Origin: Ascidiella aspersa
Lineage: Eukaryota
NCBI GenBank assembly: GCA_963924565.1
Contig: OZ004608.1
Location: 23,126,001-23,190,000 of the forward strand
Direction of reading: 5' to 3'
Length of the DNA stretch: 64,000 nt
The position numbers and the translations under genes were made by a program. Every line of letters begins with the position of its first letter. Within the stretch, counting starts at the first letter, position 1. This document shows, piece by piece, positions 43,001 to 57,541 of the stretch. Under the pieces are notes generated by a model. It saw only the letters and a list, made by a program, of their open reading frames with translations. It made no database searches and was not told where the DNA came from.

Positions 43001-45421
43001 CAGTGCAGCTTAGGATTTCGAAAACAATTTGCTGTGCGGTGCTGTGCTGTGCAGCTTGCAAACAATTTCTTAAAATGCAGTGCGGTCCGTGAACACAAAT
43101 TTTCTCCCAGCATTATCTCTTGTTGTACTCTACCTCTGTTGGCAAAAGTATTCTTTGTAAACAATTCACATTTAGTATAATTTAGGTAAACACCGCCTCA
43201 TGCGGTAACCAAGTCGTCTCATTTTTTTGCTGGAAACGTATAGGCGTTTTGTTTTGCTAAAGTTTTTGAACTGCTAAGGCTTTATTATTAATGTCTTAAC
43301 AAAAGTAATTTAAAGCTTAGTTTAAAACCAACTGTATCAAGTTACATTTGCTGTGCATTTAAAAGTTATTTGAACCCAACATTTGCTCAGTATATAATAA
43401 TCTTAAGAATCATCATTAGAGTACTTTTCATTTGTAACGGCAAATGTTTTCATAGTGCCACAATAATTAGCCTGAATATAATGTTACAATTACAGTGTGA
43501 CTTAGTAACTATAATATACACAATCTTTAATTGAAGATCCAGGCACAAAACTATTCGGTGAGACTTATTTTGTTGTTTGCTTGTGTAAAGTGTATATATA
43601 ATATGCCCATTCGTTAATTTTGGAAAATCGATAACTCGCCTGTATAGACTATTTGCTCGTCCTGCCAATTGCAGCATTAAAATCTTGTCACCAATAATAA
43701 AATTCGTTGGATGATACCTTTGTGAAGTTTTGGGGGAGAGAACCGTACTTGTATATAGGAGAGCAAGTTTTTGAAAAGTTAAACCTGAAGTACCCGATCG
43801 GGCGTCTGCGCAGGTCTGGGGAGCGGAAGTAGACGTTTTACAACCTCTATGCAAAATTGTTTAGTGGAACACCTACGACCTACGTTATACTACAAGCTTT
43901 CGTTGAACCTCAAATAAAAGTGTTTGTGGATGACTGCACGTGATGCCATAAATATAAATCTAAAAAAACTGTCGTTCTTTCGCAAAGCCGCTCAATTATG
44001 CAGGCAAACTCCTAAAGAAAAAATGCGGCTATTAGATGGTTTAAATGTCATAACTTTCAATTTCAAAGAATTCGTGACCCCAGGAGATGAAAAGAAGGCT
44101 ATAAATGCTGATGCGCCCACTTATACAGGTACAGTACCGTAATATAGTCTCTCAATGGTTGATTGCAACTTAAGCTATCTATTTTATATCGGTTAAGGCT
44201 CACGGTTTTAACACACAACCCCTTTCATTGTGGCACCGGTCAGTCGGCGGTTGATAACCACTTTTTTAGAGGACGTTTTTGCCAAACCCCTGAATAACAA
44301 CCAAGGCTAGTCAGCAAATAATTTCTGGCAGATTATTTCAACGTCAAAATAAACTTAATTACGTATATTTTTTTCGAAAAAAATTTTTACCACCATCTTG
44401 AGAATGGACTATATTTCTTAGATTTTGAAAAAAAAAATTAATATTCGAAAAAATATTAATATTCAATATTAATATTCGCCATAAAAAATAAATTAAAATT
44501 TTCATCCCAGGTTGAAACTCATATTTTTGAGTAGCGCAGGAGTAAACCTTTCCAATGATGCCTCGCTTGCTATAAATTTGTTGGGGAGTAAGGGTTTAAT
44601 TCGGCAAAAACCGATAGTAATATTCATGACATATCGCGATAATTTTTGAAAGTCTCTAGTACCCTTATTAAAAATCACAATCGAACGAAACTTTCACACG
44701 TTCATTTTCAAAGACGTAGTTTGTCAAAGAACAAAAAAAATTTAAAAATTTTTAAAGTTTTAAAAATTTCATATTAATCTATTAATAGTCCCGATATCGC
44801 GATTTTTCACCCCAAAAACATCCGACCACAATAGGCACAAATAACTTTCATCCCACCATAAAACCAAACACATTGCATAGACATTGATCTCACCTTTCCA
44901 ATGATGCCTCGCTTGCTATAAATTTGTTGGGGAGTAAGGGTTTAATTCGGCAAAAACCGATAGTAATATTCATGACATATCCCAATAATTTTCCAAAGTT
45001 TCTATGACATATCGCGTTGCCTTTGTTTTGAATTAAGCGCGTAGTGCTAAAAAATTCCTTTGTTTAATCAATTGTTAGACCTCATTGTCCTTCTGCGAGT
45101 TTTTTTCTGTCTCTGCAAGATACTATTGTTCTTCTAAAAGCTAAAGGATGTTATCACTTCGCACCAATTTTAGCACTATCGGTATGAAGCGAAAAAGTTC
45201 TTATGGACCACAGCTTTTTATAAGTTCAATTTCATGGTCATTTCATTTCAGTTTTAAGATCGTGATGAGTATACATTATATAAAGCATGGTTTAATCAAG
45301 CAGGAACTGTTGCTGAATTCTATTTTCAAATAAGTGGAATCCAGTAGTGTTTTTGTCAAATGCGCATTGAAATAGATAATTTAATTCAAGGAATATTTGC
45401 TCTTTGACCAGTGGTGTTTCA

Positions 45422-46574
45422 ATGAGTAAGAACTCTCAGGCATGTCCTAATATCGTTAACGAACGCAATAAAAAAATTAAATTTGACACCCGTATTTTAA
45501 GTAAACATTCAATTAGCTTCAGGAAAATCAGTATTTTTTCCCCAGGTTTCTCGCTGTTCGGAAGATTGTGGGACACGCGCGGTGAAAAAAGCTTCATTCA
45601 AGCCTGTGGTGGGTAAAGCAAATGTTACCCTTCGATAACTGTAAAAACACTAATGATTTTGAATTTTCTAGACCTTTCCGCGGGCACCAATGTGCGAAGC
45701 ACCACCAGTTGCATCGAAGTTGTTTTTTGGTTTTCCCGCGAACGTGGTGTGTCTGTGAAAACGCTTGTGTGTATAACAATTTCTAAACACTGCTTTATGT
45801 ATTTTCTTGTAGAAGACGGTTGGAGCACGGACATTTGCTCCACCGACCAACGGACCGAGGATAAAGGTATCCACCAATGCGGTAAGTGTTTTTTGCAAAA
45901 CTATTGGTTGTCAAAGTAGGTGTGCTGAATCATCTAACTATATTTTCTTGTAGAAGACCGTTGGAGCAGGGGCATCTGCTCCTTCGTTTAGCGGGTCAAC
46001 GGAAAAGGTACCTACCCCTGGGGTGAGTTGTTCTTTTGCAAAACTTTAATCATCTGTCAATGCTTAGTTTAAATCACAAATGTATTTACTTTCAGGGGGA
46101 GGAAAATGGGTGGATAGTCGTGGGTTCAAGGAGGTCAAGAAAAGTCACACCCACCCTTGCGGTAAGTTTTGTTGCAAAACTTTTGGTTGTCAAAGTAGGT
46201 GTGCTGAGTCATCTAACTATATTTTTTTGTAGAGGACCGTTGGAGCACGGACATGTGCTCCTTCGACCAGCGGGCTAAAACAGGAGGACTCCAAGCCTGT
46301 GGTAAGTGCTGTGGTTCAACTCTATATTGTCCTCAATACTTTAGTAGTTTAGATTGGATCGTCTAACTCTGTCTTCTTGTAGAGGAACGTTGGAGCAACG
46401 ACCTCTGTTCCATCGAACAATGAGCTCAAACCCACGAGTGCTTTAACAGATTATTATTTTTGCAGAGAGATTCAACGAATTTATGGCGGTGCCCTTAGTA
46501 CATTATCGAATGATGATAAGATAAAGTCGATAAAGGTCGCCATTGAATCGTTCGATGGACTATTGATAGATTAA
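45422..46574 (+). CDS. Predicted spliced gene inside the foldback element, about 206 aa, repetitive and low complexity, function unknown
   Basis: Phase-0 exons 45546-45608, 45672-45746, 45813-45881, 45954-46022, 46096-46161, 46233-46301 and 46383-46574 are all open in one frame, with GT-AG introns of 63-81 nt. Putative first exon 45422-45439 (MSKNSQ, GC donor). Confidence 0.7.
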
Positions 46575-47493
46575 TATGAAATTTTTAAAACTTTAAAATT
46601 TTAAACATTTTTTTTGTTCTTTGACAAACTACGCCTTTGAAAATGAACGTGTGAAAGTTTCGTTCGATTGTGATTTTTAATGAGGGTACTGGAGACTTTC
46701 AAAGATTATCGCGATATGTCATGAATATTAATATCGGTTTTTGCCGAATTAAACCCTTACTCCCCAACAAATTTATAGCAAGCGAGGCATCATTGGAAAG
46801 GTGAGATCAATGTCTATGCAATGTGTTTGGTTTTATGGTGGGATGAAAGTTATTTGTGCCTATTGTGGTCGGATGGTTTTGGGGTGAAAAATCGCGATAT
46901 TGGGACTATTAATAGATTAATATGAAATTTTTAAAACTTTAAAATTTTTAAATATTTGTTTGTTCTTTGACAAACTACGCCTTTGAAAATGAACGTGTGA
47001 AAGTTTCGTTCGATTGTGATTTTTAATGAGGGTACTAGAGACTTTCAAAGATTATCGCGATATGTCATGAATATTAATATCGGTTTTTGCCGAATTAAAC
47101 CCTTACTCCCCAACAAATTTATAGCAAGCGAGGCATCATTGGAAAGGTGAGATCAATGTCTATGCAATGTGTTTGGTTTTATGGTGGGATGAAAGTTATT
47201 TGTGCCTATTGTGGTCGGATGTTTTTGGGGTGAAAAATCGCGATATCGGGACTATTAATAGATTAATATGAAATTTTTAAAACTTTAAAATTTTTAAAAT
47301 TTTTTTTGTTCTTTGACAAACTACGTCTTTGAAAATGAACGTGTGAAAGTTTCGTTCGATTGTGATTTTTAATAAGGGTACTAGAGACTTTCAAAAATTA
47401 TCGCGATATGTTATGAATATTACTATCGGATTTTGCCGAATTAAACCCTTACTCCCCAACAAATTTATAGCAAGCGAGGCATCATTGGAAAGG
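46558..47493. repeat. 346-bp tandem repeat (about 2.7 units) in the right TIR; about 1.3 inverted units at 44546-45000
   Basis: CATCATTGGAAAG ends at 46800, 47146 and 47492; the inverse ACCTTTCCAATGATG starts at 44546 and 44892. Confidence 0.92.
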
Positions 47494-48492
47494 TTTACTC
47501 CTGTGCTACTCAAAAATATTAGTTTAAACCTGGGATGAAATTTTTAATTTATTTTTTATGGCGAATATTAATATTTTTTCGAATATTAATTTTTTTTTTC
47601 AAAATCTAAGAAATATAGTCCATTCTCAAGATGGTGGTAAATTTTTTTTTGAAAAAAATATACGTAATTAAGTTTATTCTGACGTTGAAATAATCTGCCA
47701 GAAATTATTTGCTGACTAGCTTTTGGTCTGAATAACGTCATTTAGCCTTTCCACATGGCCGCTTCAAAGGTGGCTTTAAAGGTGGCCTGGCCACCTTTGC
47801 CTCCGAAAAAGCCACTTTTCCGCCAAAAAGGTGGCTTTTCGCTGGCCCTACTCCAGAGTAGGTCCAGGCCACTGTGGCTTTTGCGAAAGGTGGCTTTTGG
47901 GTGTGCGTATCGTAAGGTTTTCGGTTTGCACGGTTCACCTTCTACCTAATTTCGGTTTATGTGTTATCAAGTGACGATTTTTGCGCAGCCATGCGTTCCA
48001 TAGCGAAAGCAAGGTACATTTTAGTGACAAAAGGTGTATTGTAATTAAAATTTATTGTATAGTTAACGGTTTTATAAAACTGTGTGCTAGGTTCACCTTA
48101 TTTTGTACTTTGCAACACACGTTGCTGTGATTTAAACCATCAGTTTTTTTGCGCGACAAAGCTATTTGCACCTGCCACAACGTGTTTGGAGAGGTCAGCA
48201 GCACATGCCTTGTTATGGAAAAAATAATTTTGCTGAAGAACCCGCAGTTGCTTTAGAGTTAAATTGCAGTATGTTTATCTGTTTTTTGGGGGGTATTGTA
48301 TATTTTCTAAATCACTCCGGTAAGTGTGTGATGCTATATTTTGCTAACAACTTACCAACAATATTTTTGGGTTGTTTTAGCAACTGTTCTGTATTTTAAT
48401 TATTTTGTTACAAAACAAAAGTGTTCTATTTCCTAACTTCAATTCTCTTTACTAGCTTGCCATGAATTCTAGGGCAAAATGGTCAGAACAAG

Positions 48493-48800
48493 TGAAGTAA
48501 CTAACAATAAACGTCGTCAAGTTCGTTTACTATAGCTTTAATCAACAATTTACAACATAGAGTGCTGTAACAAAAAGAACGTTATTGGTAACGAATATAA
48601 AAGAGTACCCAATAAGAGAAACTGACAAAGACTGACGAAGCATAGTAAAGTTACGCGAGTTATAAAGGGAAGGAAAGAATGTAACAAGACGCGGGACGTA
48701 TAATGATAATTACGGAGAGAGGCAAGGAAAAGAAAGGAGAAACGCACAGAAGCAAATAGCATAGAAATCAGAGTGAACAATAGAAACATAAATCATTACA
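48493..48800 (-). repeat. 3' LTR
   Basis: 306/308 identical to 52598-52905. Confidence 0.95.
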
Positions 48801-48826
48801 TTCATCCCTTCTAGATAAAAGACCCT

Positions 48827-51800
48827 TCAGACAGTCCAGTCTCCGTAGCGGACAGGAGCCCGACGTTCACGACCCGATCGTCGGATGTCGGGGAGAGGTA
48901 CCTCGACTCCAGGAGAGGAGGCGGGTTCCGAGGTCGGTTCATCTTCAACCGGTACCGGTGCCTCGCCTTCAGAGGTCCGAGAGGTTTCGGCGTCGCAAGG
49001 GGGAAAAGCGTCTTGGAGCGACTCAGGAGAACCAGGACACGGAGCGAGGTCGGATGTAGAGACTGTACTTTCGCGCCCATCAGAAAACCGAACATGGGCG
49101 TAGGATGGATTCGCGTCGAGCAATGTGACAGGGTCACACTGGGGCTCTCCCTTGGTTCGAACAAACCTACGTAAAAGAACAACACCACGATTAAGTAGCC
49201 ACGAAGGCATAGCGGTACCGGTTAAAGCTCGTCTCGGGAAACGGAGGAATCTTTCATGAGGTGTTTCGTTAGTCGCCGTACAGAGAAGCGAACGAATAGC
49301 GTGAAGAGCCTCTGGCAACACTTCCCCCCAGCGGTTGCCTGACAGACCACGACTGTGAAGTAGAAGTTTAATAGTTCTGCAAACCGTTTGGTTTGTCTTT
49401 TCGCACTGACCATTACCTTGTGGATGATAGGGCGTTGATTTACTGTTGCAATGCCCCGAGTAGTAAGAAACTGACGAGTTTCTTTGCTGATAAAAGAAGT
49501 CCCACGATCACTGTGAATATATTCGGGAAAACCGAATAAACAGAAGAGGACGGAGAGACACTCGATGACGGAGCGGGACGTCATGTCTCTGCAAGGAAAA
49601 ACAAACGGATATCGACTATACTCGTCAACTAGCACTAGAAGGTACGGATTCGGTCCCTGTACAGGACCCTTGAAGTCCATGCTCAGTCGCTCCCACGATC
49701 TCGTTGCTTTGACCAGATCCCGAGGTTCCGGTCTGTAGAAACGTGGTTTTAGTTCGGCGCAAGAGCGACAGTTACGCCCGACGGCTTTGGTTTCCTCGGG
49801 AGTGAACGGCAGGTTCTTACTTTTTATGAAGTGATACATACGGGCGTATCCCGGATGTCCCATCGCTTTATGCAACTCCTCAAGATTTCGCGTAGAACCT
49901 GTGAAAGCACATACCCGTGATAGAGCGTCGGGGACCACGTTTTGGACACCAGGGCGATGACGGATATCGTAAGAATATTGACCCAACTCTAGCCTCCACG
50001 AAGTGATCTTGGCGTTTTTAATTTTACCTCGATTGGTTCGGTCGAACATATAGGACACAGACTTTTGATCAGTGATGAGAGTAAAACTTCGGCCCTTTAG
50101 AAAGTGAGCCCACTTGCGGACTGCTTCGACAATGGCGGTCGCTTCCTTCTCAATAGCAGGATAGTTCCGCTCATACTTGCTAAGAGTACGTGACATAAAA
50201 GCTACCGGGCGCCCGTTCTGAGATAAAACTGCAGCAATAGCGAAGTCAGAAGCATCGGTTTCCACCTCGAAGGGAACGCCGTCGCGAATAGCCCCAAGAG
50301 TTATCCTTTCGAGCTCAGTCTTTAAATCACGGAAGGAACGGATGGCCGTCTCATTCAGAGGAAAACGATTTGCAGTGAGCAAAGGCTGTACGCGACGAGA
50401 AAAGTCCTTGATCCACTTAGCGTAGTAGGAGAACATCCCCAAGACGCGTTTCAAGGCTTTGGGTGACGTGGGTGGCGAGAGCTCGAGAAGAGGCTGTAGA
50501 CGTTGAGGATCCGGCTGTATTTTGTTTTGACTAATCCGGTATCCCAGGAAATCTAAAGAACTACGGCGAATCATTGACTTCTCTTCATTAAGAGTGAGAT
50601 TCTGCCGAGCAGCAGCTTGAAGTAGAGCTCGAAGGTTGCTGTCATGTTCCTCCAAAGTCGAACCCGTTACAGTTATGTCGTCGAGATAGGCATAGACCTT
50701 TTTCAGCTTATTAGCTTCAATAAACTCGTCAATAGCGCGCTGAAACGCGGCGACCCCATCAGTGACGCCGAACGGCAGGCGTTTGTATTGATACAGTTTT
50801 CCGCCAGCTTCAAAAGCCGTGTAGTGTCGCTCACCAGGTAACAACGGAACTTGATGATAAGCGGAACGCAGGTCGAGCGAACTAAAGAACTTATCTTGAG
50901 CGACCTTGTTTACTATTTCCTCAATCTTCGGCAATGGATAGGCGTCCAACTGGGTAAATCGGTTTATGGTGAGAGAGTAGTCGACAACCAGTCTCTTCTT
51001 GTTACCACGAGAAACCACTAGTACAGGAGCTCTCCAAGGAGAACGAGCAGGTTCTATAATATCAGACTCTAAGAGACGCCTGATCTCATCATTGATAAAC
51101 TTCCAGTCTTCTTTACTATATCGACGAGAGCGTGCAGCTATGGGAGTACAACCTGGAAGCAAAAACTCAAATAGGCGAGGGGGGGTTTAAGTCAGCGACG
51201 GCCAAAGAAAGGTGGGATAAATCATTGAATCCAATTTTCAGGGGTGCTTCCGATCCACCCATGAAGAAACTAACCTCGATATGTTTCTTCAGAAAGTCCT
51301 GACCGAGAACAACGTCAGCGCAAAGGTCATCTAAAACACTAAAGGTTAGGAGGTATGATCGACCTAGTAGGGCTATGGTAGCGGTGGTTCTTCCCGAAGT
51401 AGCGATAGAGAGACGAGAGGAGGCCATGGAAATGGAGGAGTGGGGTCCGAAGGTCTTCAGACGAAGCTTGGTGGCTAACCTTTTGTTGACAAAGTTTTCG
51501 GAAGCCCCGGATTCGATCAAAACTTGGACCGGAGTGGATTGTAGAGTCGCATCGACTAACGCAGGACCCAGACAGGAAGGAGCACCGGCCAGGAACGAGG
51601 GCGGAAGATGACCGGAAATCATGGAAGAACCAACGGCGGTAGGAGACGCGGGTCGTGGATTCACTCGGCGGGAGGAATTCGAAGAACGACTCTGGCAGAC
51701 TCGTGAAAAGTGTCTCTTTTTTCCACATTGGTAACAAGTAGCGTTACGGGCAGGACAGGTCGCGCGGCTGCTGTGCTGTCCACCACCGCAGAAATAGCAC

Positions 51801-52503
51801 AAGTTACCTTTAGCTTTTAAGCTTAAGGAACACAAGTTACCTTTAGCTTTTAAGCTTAAGAAACAGACTCGGGAGAAGTGGCGGAACTTCCATTCCCGTC
51901 GCTTTCCAGCTCTTTAAAGGCGGGAACAGACGCCACAGAAGGAATTGTCTTGCCCATCAAAACAGACTGCTGCTGCGCTTTGGACAGGCTTTCGGCAAGC
52001 TGAGAAGCCTTAGTTAAATCAAGATCTTCTATTTCCAAGAGACGTTGACGGATGAACGGAGCCGAAAGACCGTTTATGAAAGCATCTCTGGTAAGATCGT
52101 CTTTGTATTGATGAGCCGATACTGGAAGAAAAGTACAATCCTTCGCTAAAAGTTTAAGTTCCCGCAAATACTCCGCGAGTGTCTCGTCGGAGCCTTGATG
52201 ACGACTTACAAGTAGATAGCGAGCGAATACGTTATTTTTCTTCTTCACGTACATTTGTTTTAAAGTACTGACGATTTCTTCGAAGGAGTCAACATCCTCT
52301 ACATAAGAGAATATGTCTGGAGATAAACAGTTGACAATGATGCGCTTCCTGTTTGCAGCGGAAGTGGTGTTATCGCCTTCGTCGAGATGGTCGATAAAGT
52401 CGTTAACGGAGCGTAACCAATACGCGAAGTGTCGAGCAGCATTAGGAGCTTCGGGCTCGATCGTCAAAGTTTTAGGCCGCAAAAGTTGTCGGTTTTCCAT
52501 CAT
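48827..52503 (-). pseudogene. gag-pol: gag-pol polyprotein disrupted by three frameshifts
   Basis: Gag; two zinc knuckles (e.g. CYQCGKKRHFSRVC); protease LIESGA; RT YLDD; RNase H ETDAS; integrase HHCC and D,D,E. Frame breaks at about 51860, 51180 (G7 run) and 49444. Confidence 0.92.
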
Positions 52504-52597
52504 GGAAATGTTGTTGATTAAATTGAAGTCTTTTATATTGTCTTTTATATTCGTTACTAATAACGTTCTTTTTGTTACAGCACTCTATGTTTTAAAT

Positions 52598-52905
52598 TGA
52601 AGTAACTAACAATAAACGTCGTCAAGTTCGTTTACTATAGCTTTAATCAACAATTTACAACATAGAGTGCTGTAACAAAAAGAACGTTATTAGTAACGAA
52701 TATAAAAGAGTTCCCAATAAGAGAAACTGACAAAGACTGACGAAGCATAGTAAAGTTACGCGAGTTATAAAGGGAAGGAAAGAATGTAACAAGACGCGGG
52801 ACGTATAATGATAATTACGGAGAGAGGCAAGGAAAAGAAAGGAGAAACGCACAGAAGCAAATAGCATAGAAATCAGAGTGAACAATAGAAACATAAATCA
52901 TTACA
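52598..52905 (-). repeat. 5' LTR with TATAA (52765-52769), Inr-like TCAGT (about 52738) and ATTAAA (52642-52647)
   Basis: Direct reading; TATA-to-Inr spacing is about 31 nt. Confidence 0.93.
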
Positions 52906-53495
52906 ACAAGCAACCTGTAATCTTATAATTGTATTCAATAGAATAATTTGTTGGAAAAATGAATTTGAATAATGTCCGATTTTTTGTTTGACGCAATTAC
53001 AAAGGATATTCCTCCTCAAAGTAAGTGCATGAAGATTTTTCAATTTGTTTGCTTATTTGTAATGACAGTTCATCAAACAGGTTACGGACAAAATGACAAA
53101 TGGAAACAAAATCAAGAAACTTGCAATGACCTTTGTGGTGGTTTAAATGAATATTGTCCTCATCAACCAAAGCAATGTCTCCACCATATTTCCAACTATA
53201 CAGAACATTAGCAATCCTGTCCTAGCAGTATGGTATGTTTTATTGCAATTTTAATTATCAGGTAATATATTGCTAAATTATTTTCATCCTGCTGGTTTTT
53301 TGATAACTTTTGGGTATTTAAATATGTTCTATAATGTAAAAAGTTTAGCAGTGTCTTGCTGTCTTTAGGCATCCACCAGTGAGGGTGTTGAATTGATACA
53401 AATTCAAACTCAGGAACATCAATTCTCATCTCAAGTTGTTGACAACTGATGAACCAGCACACCGCAGCAGTCGCTGAGTCAGTTGGGGTAACAGG

Positions 53496-54830: not shown

Positions 54831-55421
54831 ATGAGGATATAACAATTTGTAGTCAGCAACCGCCGTCTCTTTCTTACTTTTGTTTTCAAAATAAACTTGT
54901 CTCTTTTAGGTACTATTTCATAAATCTCCAAAATACTACATCTTGGAAATAATTTTTCGGTCTCTTATCGCTTATATACTCAAAGACAACCGTACGAATG
55001 ATAGAAAACTGTGGCACAAACAGCGTTCACTTTATCTGAACGACCATGTGAATTGACCGCTAAAAGTGGCCAAAAAAGCCACCTTTTTCAGCCGGCCACC
55101 TTTGAAAAAGCCACCTTTCAAGTTGGCCATGTGGAAAGGCTAATTGTAACTTCACAAAAGTAAAATTTAAGGAGAAAGTCCGTCAATACAAAAAATTTTA
55201 AAATTTAGTTAATTGTATCAAAAATCAATTGCCCGAATCTCTATGAACATTACTTTTGGGGAAGCCATTTAGGTTGGAAAAAGTAAAATCGATAAAGCTA
55301 TGTTACTCTCGCCGTATTCACTGATTTTTGAAGACGAAAAAAATTTGCACCCAATTAGAAAATTTCGTTTCATAGAGATTTTATTTGTATAACTTACATG
55401 TAAAAGAATGCCAGTGTGAGT

Positions 55422-57541
55422 TGTCGCAACACGTCAGCACATCAAATTAATTCTTTGTTTTATCGCCTTAATGTTGCGTCATGAAAGCTTTTGTTTAAAT
55501 TCGATTGCCGATATCTCTTGCTAGAGTTTGCAACGAATGCCTTGTTACACCAATTTTTATGCGTCAGAGCTGTATGTGATGTTACGTATATCCGTTTAAA
55601 GTTAACGCATGTTTTGAAATTCGCCTTATTGTCAACAATCCGGTATTTTTTAGAATCGAACGCCAGTTACGTCGCTATGTAGATCGAAGCGCTTTTGTTC
55701 AAGCCATATTGGGACTAAAATATTATTTCCGTCTATAAGAGTCGAGAGAAAAAGGTTTAGACCACGCCTTGTTATCACGTGATATTTTGTTAAGTATTAT
55801 AAGAATTAATGACGTAAATCTTTCTTTGTTCGCAGAAATTTTTTTAACTGATTCTCGTCTATAAATAGCGTGTTCAATCAATATAAAATGGGGAGGCTTT
55901 TACAGCTTTTACTAAGACAGAAAAATTGACTGTTCATGTATCTGAACTAAAGGAAAGAATTGGACCTGAATGGCCTCAGGAAGACAAGCCATCTCAAATC
56001 TTGTAGGAGTGTGGTCGATTCATCTTGGCAATTATATAAATGAAGACTCATTAATCTGACCCACCCCCTCAAATTGGCGCGACCCGAGTAAGGATCGAAG
56101 AACTCAAATTTCACGCATATGTACAAGAAAAGATCTGCCTTAGTCTGTAGGGACCAGCTACAAGCGACCGCCTAAAAACTGTCATGTTTGGAACTTGCAA
56201 GAAGCCAGCTTTAGAAGAAAATAATCTCATCGAAAGATACGTGAAGAGACGCTCCATAGCGTCAGCAAAGCATTTGCTTGGATTACGGAACACTAAATAT
56301 AAACAAGCGTATTTTCTTGTGATGCGTCGTTATTTTAAAACTTACATTGAACGAATTGTGCAAACTAAAAAATGCAAATTTTTAAGGAAATGTTGCTTAA
56401 TGTTAAAAATCAATAGAATTTAATTTTGTATTGAATCGCAAAAGATTTTGAAATTTTAGAAAACAAACACAACAAGCGTTGGACAAAGCGATAGATCGAG
56501 ATGCAACGCGCAAAACAACGGCTTCCTGGTGACGTCAGAATTGCAACGCACCGCGCAGGGATTTTCTCCTGCAAGCCGCACAGATTTCCTGAAAAGCAAA
56601 AAGCCACAGCAAACTGCTCTGGCGTGTCGATGAAACACATTTCAAGCAACCAGCGAACGCTGACATCAAAATCCTCGTTGCCAGTTCAGGCACAAACGAA
56701 AATTTTCTCGAGGAATCAGGAATCGAACCAAAAACAATTGCGCAAATGCGTTAAATGATCGGACAATTTCGCGTCCAATGCTCCATAAGCATTTCACAAC
56801 AGCTGAAACACAACACACGAAAACAATTGGAAAATAATGTCATTCCTATATATTCGAAATGACTGCAAAACCTTTGCAAAGGGAGTATTTGTCGCAACAC
56901 GTCAGCACATCAAATTAATTCTTAGTTTTATCGCCTTAATGTTGCGTCATGAAAGTTTTTGTTTAAATTCGATTGCCGATATCTCTTGCTAGAGTTTGCA
57001 ACGAATGCCTTGTTACACCAATTTTTATGCGTCAGAGCTGTATGTGATGTTACGTATATCCGTTTAAAGTTAACGCATGTTTTGAAATTCGCCTTATTGT
57101 CAACAATCCGGTATTTTTTAGAATCGAACGCCAGTTACGTCGCAATGTAGATCGAAGCGCTTTTGTTCAAGCCATATTGGGACAAAAATATTATTTCCGT
57201 CTATAAGAGTCGAGAGAAAAAGGTTTAGACCACGCCTTGTTATCACGTGATATTTTGTTAAGTATTATAAGAATTAATGACGTAAATCTTTCTTTGTTCG
57301 CAGAAATTTTCTTAACTGATTCTCGTCTATAAATAGCGTGTTCAATCAATATAAAATGGGGAGGCTTTTACAGCTTTTACTAAGACAGCAAAGTTGACTG
57401 TTCATGTATCTGAACTAAAGGAAAGAATTGGACCTGAATGGCCTCAGGAAGACAGGCCATCTCAAATCTTGTAGGAGTGTGGTCGATTCATCTTGGCAAT
57501 TATATAAATGAAGACTCATTAATCTGACCCATACCCCTACA
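55422..57541 (+). mobile_element. Non-autonomous LTR retrotransposon (about 650-bp LTRs, about 820-bp internal region)
   Basis: LTRs 55422-56071 and 56890-57541 (TG...CA, about 98% identical); 4-bp TSD GAGT; PBS-like TGGCGCGACC at 56075; PPT-like AAAGGGAG before the 3' LTR; no pol. Confidence 0.88.

Follow-up and report, generated by a model that had tools for sequence, protein, structure and literature searches.

How does a Gypsy retrotransposon begin reverse transcription when no tRNA-binding site follows its 5' LTR? The question is raised by a minus-strand Ty3/gypsy LTR retrotransposon in a 64,000-nt stretch of the Ascidiella aspersa genome (contig OZ004608.1, positions 23,126,001 to 23,190,000; hereafter the window), which has TG...CA LTRs, a target duplication, a polypurine tract and coding domains in the order gag-PR-RT-RH-IN. 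A first-pass annotation of the window had reported that a TGG-type tRNA site is lacking downstream of the 5' LTR, which is borne out here, and had proposed that a 59-bp hairpin between the LTR and the bases just beyond it provides an internal primer. The features that bear on this question are listed below in window coordinates.

52598-52905, minus strand: 5' LTR, 308 bp, TG...CA
48493-48800, minus strand: 3' LTR, 308 bp, without the 74-nt insertion
48488-48492, with partner 52906-52910, no strand: 5-bp target-site duplication
48801-48812, minus strand: polypurine tract, adjoining the 3' LTR
48827-52503, minus strand: gag-PR-RT-RH-IN coding region, in four reading-frame pieces in the window copy, with no chromodomain and no env
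52642-52653, minus strand: 12-nt LTR arm, the predicted self-primer, which covaries with the primer-site 12-mer
52511-52522, minus strand: inherited 12-nt primer-binding-site equivalent, shifted 74 nt in the window copy
52598-52641, minus strand: 44-nt stretch from the arm to the LTR end, from which a very short minus-strand strong-stop DNA is predicted to be copied
52524-52597, minus strand: private 74-nt insertion at the LTR/primer-site junction, one genome match
52541-52599, minus strand: downstream arm of the 59-bp hairpin, mostly private insertion
52651-52709, minus strand: upstream arm of the 59-bp hairpin, the LTR template of the insertion
52765-52769, minus strand: predicted TATA-like box; a TATA-like motif is present in 8 of 9 family A copies inspected, diverged ones included
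52736-52741, minus strand: TCAGT initiator-like or splice-donor-like motif, the transcript start predicted by the first-pass annotation
52670-52694, minus strand: branch-point, polypyrimidine and AG motif, a candidate 3' splice acceptor or U-rich upstream polyadenylation element

The 59-bp hairpin and the private 74-nt insertion

The inverted repeat itself is as described: 52541-52599 matches the reverse complement of 52651-52709 at 58 of 59 positions, 51 bp of it perfect, with 51 nt between the arms. In an RNA starting near 52740 it would form a very stable hairpin (-101 kcal/mol), as would suit a functional primer structure of the element. That role is scarcely credible, however, as the hairpin occurs once in the genome, in a copy whose coding region is broken, and the long arm is missing from that copy's own 3' LTR, from all 16 sister junctions and from contigs of sequencing runs X1 and X2, in which the LTR is joined directly to the internal region. 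When the genome was searched with the junction region, sister copies matched on both sides of a gap where the window copy has 74 additional bases. The canonical junction pattern gave 23 genome matches, 17 of them classed as members of the family (including the displaced junction of the window copy), and none of the other 16 family junctions contains the insertion, whose own junction has a single match in the 308-Mb genome. With one genome match and no counterpart at the sister junctions, the long hairpin was rejected as a feature of the family. If a parent RNA carrying the insertion had primed at the displaced site, we would expect the insertion in both LTRs; since the long arm is missing from the 3' LTR of the window copy, which differs from the 5' LTR at only two positions (52692 and 52712), it did not descend by way of priming at the displaced site. 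The hairpin is the trace of one insertion event in a single defective copy and is of little consequence in itself.

The composition of the insertion suggests how it arose. It consists of 6 bases of the junction, 51 nt of LTR sequence copied in inverted orientation, a tandemly duplicated 12-mer (52528-52551) and a re-used LTR end, and is likely, judging from this content, a fold-back templated insertion. A DNA end reading ...CAATTTAA probably folded onto an upstream TAAATTG, gained 51 nt and was then rejoined; the sole mismatch in the 59 bp falls at the spot where the canonical junction base would terminate the 7-bp fold-back primer. An origin of the repeated tract end by cap templating was considered and rejected, as a plain tandem duplication of the 12-mer suffices. 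The pattern matches snap-back synthesis-dependent microhomology-mediated end joining by polymerase theta, in which, in the available text of the source, a short inverted repeat primes limited synthesis and rejoining leaves a new long inverted repeat (PMC5728401). It differs from plain snap-back repair in lying exactly at the LTR/primer-site junction, where an error of reverse transcription would also fall. The event may have been a fault in plus-strand transfer during the last reverse transcription or polymerase-theta-type repair after integration, and because of this exact position we lean, by a little, toward the former over the latter.

Sequencing libraries can contain fold-back chimeras, and the insertion has been seen in one assembly only. 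It is nevertheless very unlikely to be an assembly or library artefact absent from the DNA of the animal, as the internal 12-mer tandem duplication and the duplication at the junction suggest more than one step in vivo. The element itself is polymorphic (48486-52905), with an empty site in sequencing runs X24, X1 and X2; reads from these other individuals are therefore uninformative on the 74-nt insertion. RNA reads that cross the insertion site belong mostly to a plus-strand host transcript.

Several further features were observed in the window. At the frame change in gag, the window copy has a 33-bp tandem duplication (51798-51863). A second, small LTR element at 55421-57531, probably non-autonomous, has two 643-bp repeats (98.8% alike) around approximately 825 bp; its first repeat is followed by a TGG-type site, and the element seems to have a 4-bp target duplication. 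A foldback-like element at 44303-47723 has inverted ends of approximately 700 bp made of 346-bp repeats.

An inherited 12-bp pairing between LTR and primer site

The first-pass annotation had overlooked an inherited 12-nt site, 52511-52522, that pairs with 52642-52653 in the LTR. In sister copies this primer-site equivalent starts 1 nt past the LTR end. Throughout the family of the window copy (family A), the 12 nt that begin one base past the LTR CA pair with an arm that ends 44 nt before the LTR end, and in the window copy this arm terminates in an ATTAAA hexamer resembling a poly(A) signal. Pairing of this extent was reached by 1 of 5000 shuffles in family A and by none of 5000 in each of six other families, and in 14 3' or solo LTRs the genomic flank pairs over only 3-6 nt. 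Arm and site agree in all 13 family A copies with a readable arm, across three alleles (9 GA, 3 AA and 1 GG), and the 3' LTR of the GG copy carries the same arm change. Three decayed copies have a disrupted arm and an intact site. No TGG-initiated tRNA site was found within 5 nt of the 5' LTR at any junction of family A or of two further families in the same genome (B and C), and the longest tRNA complement to the site was 4-6 nt, among about five isotypes from one genomic tRNA cluster.

We found self-pairing of this kind in ten families: A, B and C in the A. aspersa genome and seven from other contigs. Families B and C have an RT 57-68% identical and the same layout in different letters; in family B, arm and site agree in 10 of 11 readable copies, the discordant one being L061. 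Across the ten families, 118 of 120 pairs at the 12 positions are Watson-Crick, with two to four pair types at 8 of the positions, and arms combined with the sites of other families pair at a mean of 7.9 of 12. Arm and site covary within and between families. The spacer from LTR to site is always 1 nt (in five outside families the LTR end was deduced from the CA preceding the site and not from paired LTRs), the distance from arm to LTR end is 23-52 nt, and the arm ends in AAA in all ten families and contains AATAAA or ATTAAA in seven. Outside the A. aspersa genome we found 37 loci, 11 of which reach the start of gag; the other 26 were excluded from the pairing count. In eight of the 11 the pairing has no more than one mismatch in 12, L103 has two mismatches, and L109 and L110 have neither pairing nor a recognisable LTR end.

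Control loci from distant Gypsy elements have TGG after the LTR in 16 of 20 cases, the other four being unresolved, and none of the 13 tested has self-pairing of at least 8 nt. In an RT-RH tree of 39 rows (midpoint-rooted, with no chromovirus row), a branch with 100/100 support splits the 10 self-pairing rows from the 13 TGG rows; L062, a fragment too short, and L156 were left out. A domain scan of the 1226-aa ORF of a sister copy and of three relatives found no chromodomain at E <= 0.1. On their sequences, the ten families are one RT clade that lacks a chromodomain and is separate from the tRNA-primed families.

The RT-RH-IN region is 53-69% identical to animal elements and only remotely similar to Ty3 (193 bits versus 600-800). 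Among named proteins, those of Ciona intestinalis come closest (69% and 64% identity) and fall in the same subclade of the RT-RH tree; the self-pairing side of the tree also takes in proteins named from Ciona, Trichuris, Armadillidium, butterflies and an ant, known here from proteins alone. We take the clade probably to be Cigr-1, which likewise has a single ORF of approximately 1210-1230 aa and short LTRs; the name is a lead only. A scan of viral contigs found no relative.

Several individual loci showed further peculiarities. Eight contigs in bacterial genome bins (L153-L160) match the animal retrotransposon clade and are probably host contamination. In the LTR of a family copy (L173:580-610), a poly(A) tract whose flank is duplicated looks like a truncated LINE-type insertion, and nine identical truncated LTR pieces spread over approximately 240 kb (G000:C8:14186712-14424657) suggest amplification within a larger repeat. 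At L056, family B elements stand in tandem with apparently one LTR in common; a shared-LTR tandem form is described for integrase-independent Tf1 insertion in the available part of PMC11042837.

Probable self-priming and the 5' end of the transcript

Taken together, we think it probable that the window copy combines a one-off, likely fold-back insertion with an inherited 12-bp LTR/primer-site pairing that the lineage likely uses for self-priming. The idea of self-priming without a tRNA therefore stands, well supported at the level of family and clade, while the original version, in which a 59-nt hairpin is the internal primer, does not; the inversion is private, and the copies that lack it have no tRNA site either. 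By analogy with Tf1, we hold a Tf1-like mechanism to be likely for the lineage. In Tf1, according to the portion of the source at hand, the RNA's first 11 bases pair with the primer site, and cleavage by RNase H falls between bases 11 and 12 (PMC7175516), and about half of the cDNA retains a DNA copy of the primer (PMC11042837, in part). In the animal clade, the arm would likewise pair with the site, enclosing a loop of 24-53 nt, and RNase H would cleave directly 3' of the terminal AAA of the arm. The freed 3' end would prime a strong-stop DNA of approximately 25-55 nt, which would transfer to the RNA 3' end just beyond the poly(A) signal, and plus-strand synthesis would later copy the primer back into the primer site; in family A the strong-stop DNA would measure about 45 nt. 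The same helix may also mask the poly(A) signal's 5' copy. Such a scheme, whose catalytic steps we infer, would explain the fixed position of the site, the missing TGG and why arm and site are so closely coupled; changes in the arm would recur in the site because plus-strand synthesis would copy the primer back.

Covariation of arm and site also fits selection for any 12-bp helix. The AAA end of every arm and the AATAAA or ATTAAA of most would suit a helix whose chief role is to hide the 5' poly(A) signal, with priming left to a tRNA fragment or another small RNA. We consider this unlikely: the partner of the arm always starts 1 nt past the LTR CA, where priming must occur, and the site varies with the arm from family to family and from copy to copy, a pattern that a fixed host RNA could not follow. 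The short tRNA complements found (4-6 nt at most, about five isotypes) also argue against a small-RNA primer.

Under Tf1-like self-priming, the arm could be the first 11-12 nt of the transcript, acting as a 5'-end primer, or it could lie farther in. We lean slightly toward the former; an internal primer, a variant of the preferred explanation that differs solely in where the RNA starts, has somewhat less than an even chance. A pyrimidine-purine step lies 12/11 nt from the arm end in seven of the ten families (binomial p approximately 0.006, the families not being independent), and it is absent in family A and in L153; this register and the sharp 12-bp core speak against an internal primer. The start at approximately 52738 given by the first-pass annotation was a motif-based guess. 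The RNA reads come from one run on another individual (208 and 47 reads, copies mixed), and the 47 reads, too few to reveal a start or a poly(A) site, contain no pile-up at a transcript start. In fission yeast, start-site choice determines whether the self-primer is included in the RNA, as the available text of PMC5341516 has it, and more than one start is therefore possible in the clade.

The more specific form of an internal primer places the start near 52738 or further upstream and embeds the 12-20-nt arm in a longer leader that may be spliced or trans-spliced; cleavage 3' of the arm would then make the entire 5' piece the primer. We regard this form as possible, though the less probable course. 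In family A, a TATA-like box approximately 115 nt upstream of the arm is conserved among copies together with the TCAGT/GTGAGT motif, and no family of the ten has a TATA box 20-36 nt upstream of the arm, where a start at the arm itself would place one (-30). The duplex, which spans 12 bp in family A and from 12 to 20 bp in the clade as a whole, decays gradually past its core (7, 7, 6 and 5 of ten families still paired at positions 13, 14, 15 and 16) and reaches 14-20 nt in seven families, exceeding the need of an 11-nt capped primer, although the extra pairing could also stem from DNA fold-back. An acceptor-like motif lies at most 40 nt upstream in four of the ten families at p < 0.05, a post hoc result and a lead; in family A it is the motif at 52670-52694, 17 nt upstream of the last 11 nt of the arm (p 0.0035 against shuffles, also post hoc), which is kept in diverged copies. 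Against a leader stand the 133-bp LTR of family B, which has little room for one, and the lack of splice joints among the few RNA reads; none was seen across the family A donor- and acceptor-like motifs, at low read depth.

Within the family A LTR (52670-52741; L042, L045, L047, L048 and L051), a donor-like GTGAGT/GTCAGT was observed approximately 70 nt from the conserved acceptor-like tract.

Relation to known self-priming elements

The clade shares with Tf1 and Tf2 of Schizosaccharomyces pombe, with Tj1 and with the Tf1/sushi group the lack of a tRNA site, an 11-12-nt LTR complement of the primer site, an RT with its own RNase H and the predicted copying of the primer into the site. Unlike them, it lacks an integrase C-terminal chromodomain, given as a feature of the Tf1/sushi group in the accessible part of PMC10085805, and it has a loop of only 24-53 nt, an arm that overlaps the poly(A) signal and a 1-nt spacer between LTR and site. 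Because no chromodomain was found, we do not file the element under Tf1/sushi despite its likely Tf1-like working.

For Tf1/sushi elements, the same portion of PMC10085805 describes a "pretzel" of three duplexes, two of them flanking a central one. The central duplex is present in the clade. In the canonical family A junction, the minimum-free-energy fold stacks an inner stem within 52598-52641 on the primer helix (the stem alone has p 0.59 in family A); a stacked inner stem of this kind appears in the predicted folds of 6 of the 10 families and is significant only in B. Pairing of a third duplex with bases 3' of the site was no better than in shuffles in all ten families. The fold models thus lend weak support to one of the two flanking duplexes.

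In plants, self-priming of Tcn1 (gypsy) and of TAR, Houba and Osr-1 (copia) was predicted, in the sections available of PMC6317226, from a complement of at least 10 nt starting 0-5 nt past the LTR, and family A has a complement of this kind. These elements differ from the clade in host and lineage, Tcn1 grouping with Tf1/sushi and TAR being a copia element. With the Cigr-1 clade (Ciona, molluscs and annelids) the link is through C. intestinalis, whose proteins are the nearest named ones to the RT-RH-IN of the element. The available portions of PMC6238403, PMC8556966 and PMC3670739 contain no statement on priming in Cigr-1, and those of PMC2582038, PMC3601003, PMC4600332 and PMC5443660 contain none for the clade of the element; a search that lay outside Repbase, GyDB and most subscription papers and drew on partial texts turned up no account of self-priming for this clade.

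The real finding beneath the hairpin is a covarying 12-bp site of self-priming type in a non-chromovirus animal Gypsy clade; the type of mechanism is already known. In the portions of the literature available to us, the Gypsy elements linked with self-priming are the Tf1/sushi chromoviruses. A bolder reading, which we offer as speculative and rather doubtful as a whole, is that a widespread chromodomain-less animal Gypsy clade evolved self-priming independently of Tf1/sushi, with a primer cut from within a longer, possibly spliced leader, an arm that doubles as the poly(A) signal, and a single small hairpin that would both block premature polyadenylation and start a strong-stop DNA of 25-55 nt. 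Such elements would be overlooked or wrongly scored by LTR annotation tools that insist on a tRNA site. An arm that combines primer and poly(A) signal would make a small, testable model of how LTR RNA ends are told apart. If the clade is indeed a separate animal one, with named relatives, from proteins only, in tunicates, nematodes, crustaceans and insects, it would represent another origin of tRNA-free priming.
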